Source of the DNA: a virus | Length of the DNA stretch: 64,000 nt | Direction: 5' to 3' (one strand) | Virus record (IMG/VR): IMGVR_UViG_3300009184_000001 | Coordinates: 1-64,000 of that record | Translations under genes and position numbers: made by a program | Shown here: piece after piece, positions 50,401 through 51,371 of the stretch | How positions within the stretch are numbered: position 1 is the stretch's first letter | Layout: every line of letters starts with the position of its first letter | The notes under the pieces: generated by a model | What the model was told of the DNA's origin: nothing | Database searches by the model: none | What the model saw: the letters and a program-made list of their open reading frames with translations, nothing else

Positions 50401-50502
50401 TTAAGCCTTAACTAATTTACGTTTGATTGGGTCAAATACTTTTGGAGACTTCTTAAAAGCCTTCCCACTATTTCTTTTATCGTTACGGGCACCTTTTGCC
50501 AT
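50401..50502 (-). CDS. 33-aa basic peptide
   Basis: AGGAG RBS; MAKGARNDKRNSGKAFKKSPKVFDPIKRKLVKA. Confidence 0.65.
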   Translation of the reverse strand: MAKGARNDKRNSGKAFKKSPKVFDPIKRKLVKA

Positions 50503-50528
50503 TTTATTCTCCTATCTGTTATTGTTCG

Positions 50529-50599
50529 CTGATTCTGTAGGAGTCGAACCTACGCTAACGGTGTTGGAGACCGCTGTGCTACCGTAACACTTAGAACCA
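50529..50599 (-). tRNA. trnW: tRNA-Trp (CCA)
   Basis: Acceptor TGGTTCT/AGAATCA, D arm GTG..CAC, anticodon arm GCGGT-CTCCAAC-ACCGT, T arm GTAGG-TTCGACT-CCTAC, discriminator G; CCA end not encoded. Confidence 0.92.
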
Positions 50600-50669
50600 T
50601 TAGTGCAACTACTCCCAAGGACGAAACAATGGGCGGAGTTATCCACGGCTAGTTGCCATACCGTGGCAG

Positions 50670-50749
50670 TGGACCAGCACAGAATTGAACTGTGGTCTTA
50701 CAGAGTCCTACTGGAGGCTTTGTTCTGCAATCGACACCATTTCTAGCCC
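50670..50749 (-). ncRNA. tmRNA tRNA-like-domain-only RNA (mini-ssrA)
   Basis: GGGCTAG/CTGGTCC-A acceptor with G3:U70; stemless D loop AAATGGTGTCGA; helix TTGCAGA/TCTGTAA; GAC linker; T arm CACAG-TTCAATT-CTGTG; no tag ORF. Confidence 0.8.
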
Positions 50750-50823
50750 TTGTGCCAGGATGATTGCCACTAGGCTCACGCGAGAACATACGGTGCTCCT
50801 GGCGAACACACGCTCTTGTAATT

Positions 50824-50851
50824 AGTATACACCAAAATTACTTGATGTCAA
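50824..50851 (-). promoter_or_regulatory. Sigma70-type promoter for the small-RNA operon
   Basis: TTGACA-16 nt-TATACT overlapping the end of the Hsp20 gene. Confidence 0.65.
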
Positions 50852-51371
50852 TTACCTTAGGTTTCTTTTCTTCAGGAAGCTCTTTCTTAAAAGTAATTAC
50901 TAGTAGTCCATTATCTAGTTCAGCACTTGTTACTACCCAGTACTCAGCAATAGCAAGAGATAGAGTAAAGTCTCTAGTAGCTATACCTTGATATAGTACT
51001 TCTCCTTTAGCCTTACTCTCCTTGTTACCTTGAATAGTAATAGTAGAGTCTTTAACAGTAACAGTAATTTCTTTTTTACTAAAACCAGCAACAGCTACAT
51101 TGAGTAGGTTAGTTTCATCATCCAATTGAACAATGTCGTATGGGGGATAGGTTGGTTTATTTGAGGTAATTTCCTTGAGTTGGTCAAGGATAGGTGACCA
51201 GCCAATAGATAGACGGTCTAGACGAGGGAATAGGTCAGCAATGGTAATAACCTTAGGCTTCTCTGATTGCCACTTCTTATAACTATCTTCGTGGATATTT
51301 GGACCCCAGGGAGTATAAGGTGGTTTTTTGTTTTTATCCCATGGGTCATTTGAATATGGTTGTATATGCAT
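50838..51371 (-). CDS. Small heat-shock protein Hsp20 (IbpA-like)
   Basis: YPPYDIV, VAVAGF, YQGIATRDF, AELDNGLLVI, PEEKKPKVIDI. Confidence 0.93.
   Translation of the reverse strand: MHIQPYSNDPWDKNKKPPYTPWGPNIHEDSYKKWQSEKPKVITIADLFPRLDRLSIGWSPILDQLKEITSNKPTYPPYDIVQLDDETNLLNVAVAGFSKKEITVTVKDSTITIQGNKESKAKGEVLYQGIATRDFTLSLAIAEYWVVTSAELDNGLLVITFKKELPEEKKPKVIDIK

Follow-up and report, generated by a model that had tools for sequence, protein, structure and literature searches.

Bacteria rescue stalled ribosomes and exert quality control mainly by trans-translation, and the region of tmRNA beyond helix 2a is normally occupied by pseudoknots and the tag ORF. The tmRNA of mycobacteriophage DS6A is listed as 'TLD only', that is, as a tRNA-like domain, and Hudson, Lau and Williams found strong inhibition of tmRNA by a DS6A-like molecule whether or not this could be charged, with titration of SmpB as a possible cause (PMC4131195). 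According to the 2025 tmRNA database paper, the endogenous tmRNA of E. coli is inhibited by the DS6A form; the paper also describes CDS-less tmRNAs from jakobid mitochondria and some Ochrophyta plastids (PMC11915505). By their description, the organellar RNAs are like the one reported here in having little beyond the TLD and a length of about 65-80 nt; however, they are encoded in organelles and inherited together with the SmpB system of the host, whereas the mini-tmRNA is a phage gene. The RNA type is thus already published through DS6A, the copy analysed here is a further member of it, and the original prediction was right that TLD-only genes had been observed in phages (PMC4131195, PMC11915505). 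The literature search, which covered openly readable papers, gave no account of the family beyond DS6A, and within the literature searched DS6A is the sole reported case of a phage RNA disabling or rewiring trans-translation.

The window, a stretch of 64,000 nt, belongs to a 94,440-bp phage genome in IMG/VR that is complete and carries direct terminal repeats. All the TLD hallmarks predicted for positions 50670-50749 are present; they are read on the minus strand, which the original prediction omitted, with the 5' end at 50749. The parts of the RNA gene are as follows.

50670..50749 (-): mini-tmRNA (TLD-only) gene, 80 nt, identified by sequence, fold, covariation and the covariance model R1 (89.3 bits)
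50749-50743 (-): acceptor stem, 5' strand, GGGCUAG
50742-50731 (-): D loop, AAAUGGUGUCGA, 12 nt, stemless
50730-50724 (-): helix 2a, 5' strand, UUGCAGA
50723-50705 (-): distal 19 nt with a 3-bp hairpin inside, CCU/AGG, loop CCAGU
50704-50698 (-): helix 2a, 3' strand, UCUGUAA
50697-50695 (-): GAC linker
50694-50678 (-): T arm, CACAG-UUCAAUU-CUGUG, 5-bp stem including G53-C61, and 7-nt loop
50677-50671 (-): acceptor stem, 3' strand, CUGGUCC
50670 (-): discriminator A (A73)

The acceptor strands form 7 bp with a G3:U70 wobble pair, and helix 2a, also of 7 bp, stands where an anticodon arm would be and is joined by GAC to the T arm. The RNA has neither an anticodon loop nor a tag ORF, and no mRNA-like domain (resume codon, tag ORF, stop codon or pseudoknots) was found within the 19 nt between the helix 2a strands. 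ARAGORN called no tmRNA in the window. As read from its sequence, the predicted RNA is the TLD of tmRNA only, with a short conserved hairpin capping helix 2a. Lacking a resume codon and an ORF, it cannot carry trans-translation to its end, and without the mRNA-like part it cannot act as a message. The bases after A73 are CUG, so that CCA is not encoded; the neighbouring tRNA-Trp likewise has no encoded CCA, and the host would therefore have to add CCA to both. RNAfold gave the same fold, with an energy that is unremarkable on its own (z = -0.92, single sequence).

The closest described relative, the DS6A RNA (JN698994.1 28478-28557), has the same length of 80 nt and the same order of parts, with a 7-bp acceptor stem carrying G3:U70, A73 and helix 2a. 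Its D loop AAUGGUG(G)UCGA, distal hairpin AAAACC...GGU and T loop UUCGAUU have corresponding parts in the window copy; both RNAs are phage-borne, and the DS6A RNA is not called by ARAGORN. On the other hand, every stem differs in sequence between the two, and the linker is CAC in DS6A but GAC in the window copy. The DS6A RNA is GC-rich and scores 43.2 bits on the Rfam tmRNA model RF00023, which does not match the window copy. DS6A is temperate and has an integrase, whereas the window phage is without a tyrosine integrase and carries the gene after hsp20 and next to tRNA-Trp. The score of the DS6A RNA on R1 was 71.5 bits, a value reached partly by construction since DS6A was in the R1 seed alignment.

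Next, the RNA was compared with standard tmRNA. The actinobacterial tmRNAs L279-L281 have the 5' layout GGGG..G-AACGGU(C/U)UCGAC-helix and the 3' layout helix-GAC-CCGGG-UUCGAUU-CCCGG-acceptor-A, and both ends of the mini-tmRNA line up with them part by part; its D loop AAAUGGUGUCGA aligns with AACGGUCUCGAC of real actinobacterial tmRNA. RF00023 tmRNA and the mini-tmRNA share G3:U70, A73, a D loop that has no stem and carries GG and UCGA(C), helix 2a, and a GAC that precedes a T arm with a stem of 5 bp and the loop UUCRAUU, whereas about 290 nt of standard tmRNA, comprising the pseudoknots, the resume codon, the tag ORF and the stop codon, are absent from the mini-tmRNA. A search with the tmRNA model in local mode, which had been suggested as a check, misses the window copy: RF00023 gave no match in the whole phage genome, and the permuted and cyanobacterial tmRNA models gave only partial matches of 9-11 bits. 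At the gathering score and at E <= 10, Rfam reported only tRNA-Trp in the 801 nt searched. Five relatives scored 65.4, 53.6, 51.2, 47.1 and 44.1 bits in RF00023 local mode, four of them passing the gathering threshold of 47 bits, and each match was about 80 nt long while spanning model positions 1-374. The ordinary tRNA-Ala genes L283 127-202 (-) and L284 1501-1576 (-) reached 33-40 bits in the same mode, also over model positions 1-374. These scores alone are accordingly no proof of TLD ancestry, and the TLD assignment of the window copy, which RF00023 does not match, rests on anatomy and family membership. For sub-threshold RF00023 matches of about 76 nt, the anticodon arm should be checked before a TLD-only tmRNA is called.

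Three other readings of the element are highly improbable: an unusual alanine tRNA lacking the D stem, a tRNA or tmRNA pseudogene in decay, and an attP site that copies the 3' end of host ssrA. The acceptor is of the alanine type, tRNA-Ala shares G3:U70, A73 and the T arm with the mini-tmRNA, the best identifiable R1 matches outside the family are tRNA-Ala genes (28 and 24 bits), and ARAGORN and Rfam give the element no name. However, the D stem, the anticodon stem-loop and the anticodon of tRNA-Ala are all missing from the mini-tmRNA. A D-stem-less tRNA-Ala was rejected because the element lacks an anticodon loop of 7 nt and an NGC anticodon is not conserved. A canonical tRNA, which the original prediction had named as the competing explanation, was called neither by ARAGORN nor by the Rfam tRNA model (RF00005), while the adjacent tRNA-Trp was called at 53.7 bits. 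The presence of both acceptor halves, the terminal repeats and the lack of a tyrosine integrase, for which the phage genome was searched, argue against attP; a pseudogene is excluded by the compensatory changes in every helix described below.

Homologues were collected from IMG/VR with a degenerate pattern consisting of the D-loop motif, the T-loop motif and the UCCA end, with 30-60 nt between. The scan returned 92 stretches, about 70 of which had 7/7 acceptor pairs and 5/5 T-stem pairs, as against at most 5 for chance matches. The survey of related phages that had been proposed thus led to 54 distinct homologues with strong covariation (alignment A2, DS6A included), and TLD-only RNA is common in uncultivated phages. 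Among the 54, 95.5% of the pair cells were paired, and 18 of the 22 pairs had changed on both sides, i.e., in a compensatory manner. The covariation score was 0.629, whereas shuffles gave 0.171 and slid partners 0.06-0.11; strong covariation was found in all four helices, and all five pairs of the T stem covary. Helix 2a was not used for sequence selection and was registered solely from the flanking conserved motifs; nevertheless, it pairs 7/7 in 44 of the homologues and 6/7 in the remaining 10, and single positions show as many as six pair types.

The wobble pair is conserved, with G3 (G:U) in 52/54 members and A3:U70 in 2/54, and G1-G3 were never constrained by the searches. The GAC linker is kept in 51/54 members, and CCA is encoded in 11/54. 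A second pattern that was free of the acceptor returned 57 stretches, all with the UCCA end and all already in the UCCA-ending set, with A73 invariant (57/57). Since this pattern returns only UCCA ends, U70, C71, C72 and A73 are conserved and not imposed by the search. In the distal part, an internal loop with the conserved motif AARRCC...GGA precedes, across the family, a variable stem of 3 bp; its loop usually has 5 nt but is shorter or longer in some members. In L091 424-502 (-) and L120 1039-1117 (+), A3:U70 stands in place of G3:U70 and the distal hairpin is divergent; these RNAs would be uncharged variants if AlaRS needs the wobble pair.

The covariance model R1, which was built from the 54 homologues, found the window copy with E = 6e-24 as a single copy in the whole 94-kb phage genome. 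It returned 79 family matches at 65.8-94.2 bits, and everything else, ordinary tRNAs included, scored at most 29 bits. The window element is therefore more than a chance match, the evidence being the family and not the fold of a single sequence, and 50670-50749 is very probably a genuine TLD-only RNA gene. The original reading as a TLD-only mini-tmRNA agrees with the anatomy and the family evidence: relatives pass the RF00023 gathering score, and the DS6A RNA belongs to the same family. ARAGORN, Rfam thresholds and GenBank annotation all miss TLD-only RNAs, which amounts to an annotation gap. An exact 25-mer of the T arm and acceptor had no match in IMG/VR, and blastn and megablast searches of cultured phages gave tRNA-Trp similarity only, or nothing. 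Among the first 80 of more than 120 pattern matches in bacterial genomes, there was no prophage copy above 65 bits by R1, and only a weaker element in a cyanobacterial tRNA array was found.

The mini-tmRNA gene lies between an hsp20 gene and a tRNA gene, in the following setting.

50838..51371 (-): gene for an Hsp20-family small heat-shock protein (PHROG 432, E = 1.1e-32), directly upstream
50824..50851 (-): putative sigma-70/sigma-A-like promoter, TTGACA-16 nt-TATACT, from a consensus scan (11/12 matches)
50750..50817 (-): 5' leader, about 67 nt long and containing a hairpin, differing in sequence among relatives
50600..50669 (-): spacer from mini-tmRNA to tRNA-Trp with a 6-bp hairpin, CCACGG/CCGUGG, read from the sequence
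50529..50599 (-): tRNA-Trp with anticodon CCA, downstream of the mini-tmRNA in the same orientation (ARAGORN; Rfam tRNA 53.7 bits)
50401..50502 (-): small, very basic ORF of 33 aa, start MAKGARNDKRNSGK, after tRNA-Trp and behind a good ribosome-binding site

The window copy is a clean family member with its own putative promoter. The -35 element reaches into the end of hsp20 (codons I-D-I-K-stop), and the -10 form TAnnnT, which lies outside the ORF, is kept in most of the 16 hsp20-linked relatives; the promoter at the hsp20 end would thus drive the mini-tmRNA. A leader hairpin is found in all 16 hsp20-linked loci with unrelated sequences, and its long stem always ends 4-6 nt before G1. RNase P presumably cuts the leader off at G1. 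By neighbour clustering, 16 of the 54 loci have hsp20, promoter, leader hairpin and mini-tmRNA in this order, and no protein neighbour is consistent across the whole family, hsp20 being common only to the clade of the window copy. In the close relative L100 the spacer hairpin is absent, and tRNA-Trp follows 4 nt after the mini-tmRNA. Elsewhere in the family, the mini-tmRNA is often arranged head to tail with tRNA genes at distances of 1-5 nt, in arrays of up to 24 tRNAs, which implies excision by tRNA-processing enzymes. In the lake metatranscriptome X3, contigs covered some phage protein genes and none covered 50529-50851; given the use of contigs and the loss of small RNAs, this result is uninformative.

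The mini-tmRNA is nearly identical in L002 and L005, contigs related via hsp20. In the close relatives L003 and L004, hsp20 is followed directly by tRNA-Trp without a mini-tmRNA. The absence of the mini-tmRNA from L003, L004 and a variant in the DNA run X1 shows that the gene is dispensable. In this co-occurring variant, position 50515 is joined to 50823 and a 36-nt hairpin replaces 50516-50822, so that mini-tmRNA and tRNA-Trp are both missing; the RNA cluster behaves as a gain-and-loss cassette. A homologue of the 33-aa basic ORF stands directly after the mini-tmRNA in L005.

We estimate the probability at about 0.6 that the mini-tmRNA competes with host tmRNA for SmpB and thereby lowers ssrA tagging, by analogy with the DS6A-like RNA in E. 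coli. The SmpB decoy put forward first in the original prediction, one that blocks trans-translation, matches the published account of such an RNA expressed in E. coli (PMC4131195, PMC11915505). A search of the phage genome for SmpB found none, so any SmpB partner must come from the host, and an RNA unable to finish trans-translation would compete with host tmRNA for it. The RNA would be transcribed from the promoter at the hsp20 end together with tRNA-Trp, excised like a tRNA by RNase P at G1 with subsequent 3' trimming after A73, and completed with CCA by the host enzyme. AlaRS might then recognise it via G3:U70 and A73, while the D loop, the GAC elbow and helix 2a would serve for binding by host SmpB. 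Rescue and ssrA tagging would fall during infection as the RNA competes with host tmRNA for SmpB and perhaps also for EF-Tu and stalled ribosomes. Against this role, inhibition was reported in E. coli and for another member of the family, not for the window phage or its host.

The tight conservation of the alanine identity set favours a second explanation, in which the Ala-charged mini-tmRNA enters stalled ribosomes with SmpB and accepts the nascent chain, which is then freed without the ssrA degron. The peptidyl-RNA would be released or hydrolysed (by Pth, ArfB or an RF-like factor), or several rounds would add alanines, and the RNA would be part of a mobile translational-stress toolkit together with tRNA arrays. 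G3:U70, A73 and the UCCA end are near-invariant even though the search did not force them, which argues that charging matters, since a pure SmpB sponge would not need it. Family members are embedded in phage tRNA arrays, and a related element occurs in the cyanobacterial trn array, for which induction by translational stress is reported (PMC10272220). In some organelles, CDS-less tmRNAs persist alongside SmpB (PMC11915505). However, the published inhibition is independent of the ability to be charged (PMC4131195). The two members with A3:U70 speak against such a rescue as well and suggest that charging may not be essential. To our knowledge, there is no release mechanism for a peptidyl-TLD without a stop codon, which further counts against it. 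In view of this evidence, tag-free rescue is possible but rather unlikely. Its more specific form, in which the mini-tmRNA is a chargeable tag-free or alanine-adding rescue factor in mobile tRNA arrays and a proteostasis module with hsp20 at this locus, is unlikely; if a rescue factor were indeed involved, the stress toolkit would span phages of several host groups and the trn operon of filamentous cyanobacteria.

Phage tRNA arrays are linked to the evasion of tRNA-targeting defences, which counts for a third explanation: the RNA would serve as a decoy or shield where a toxin or defence of the host (nucleases or modifying enzymes) recognises tRNA-Ala-like or tmRNA-like RNAs, or else it would have an extra-translational role. 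The distal motif AARRCC...GGA, conserved without an assigned partner, could be accommodated in this way. However, no defence or anti-defence gene is consistently linked, as the neighbours vary across the family, and the conserved positions are of the SmpB, AlaRS and T-loop type and do not form a nuclease target loop; such a function is therefore improbable, and competition for host SmpB is retained as the preferred role.

The cyanobacterial element, of about 80 nt and TLD-like, lies between tRNA-Glu(ttc) and tRNA-Tyr in a large tRNA array of Nostoc, Mojavia and Chroococcales. It was located at these positions.

L198 6134-6214 (+): cyanobacterial TLD-like element
L197 6981-7060 (-): cyanobacterial TLD-like element
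L200 3806-3885 (+): cyanobacterial TLD-like element
L214 4016-4095 (-): cyanobacterial TLD-like element
L169 2081-2160 (+): cyanobacterial TLD-like element

Its acceptor GGGGUGA/UCACUCC carries G3:U70 and is followed by A73, its D loop contains AAUGGUGAUCGAC, and a T arm is present. R1 scores it at 38-43 bits, ARAGORN leaves the gap uncalled, and no mention of it was found in the literature searched. The array resembles the trn operon of Anabaena.

The host of the window phage is probably a freshwater actinobacterium. Two WhiB-family genes were found outside the window, at G000 67702-67893 (+) and 85337-85567 (-), with 77.6 and 58.4 bits; the phage was found in freshwater metagenomes and has a GC content of about 42%. 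Its terminase is 51% identical to those of the Streptomyces phages BRock and LuckySocke, which are the closest cultured relatives of this terminase. Both phages carry candidate mini-tmRNAs in gaps of their tRNA arrays, unannotated in GenBank: KX925554.1 97143-97220 (-) in BRock (L278; 54.3 bits by R1) and OR725497.1 17977-18054 (+) in LuckySocke (L277; 60 bits). Because these phages are cultivable, the effect of the RNA on ssrA tagging and phage fitness is directly testable there. The D loops of the two candidates are nearer to that of real tmRNA, the one of LuckySocke being GGUUUCGAC.
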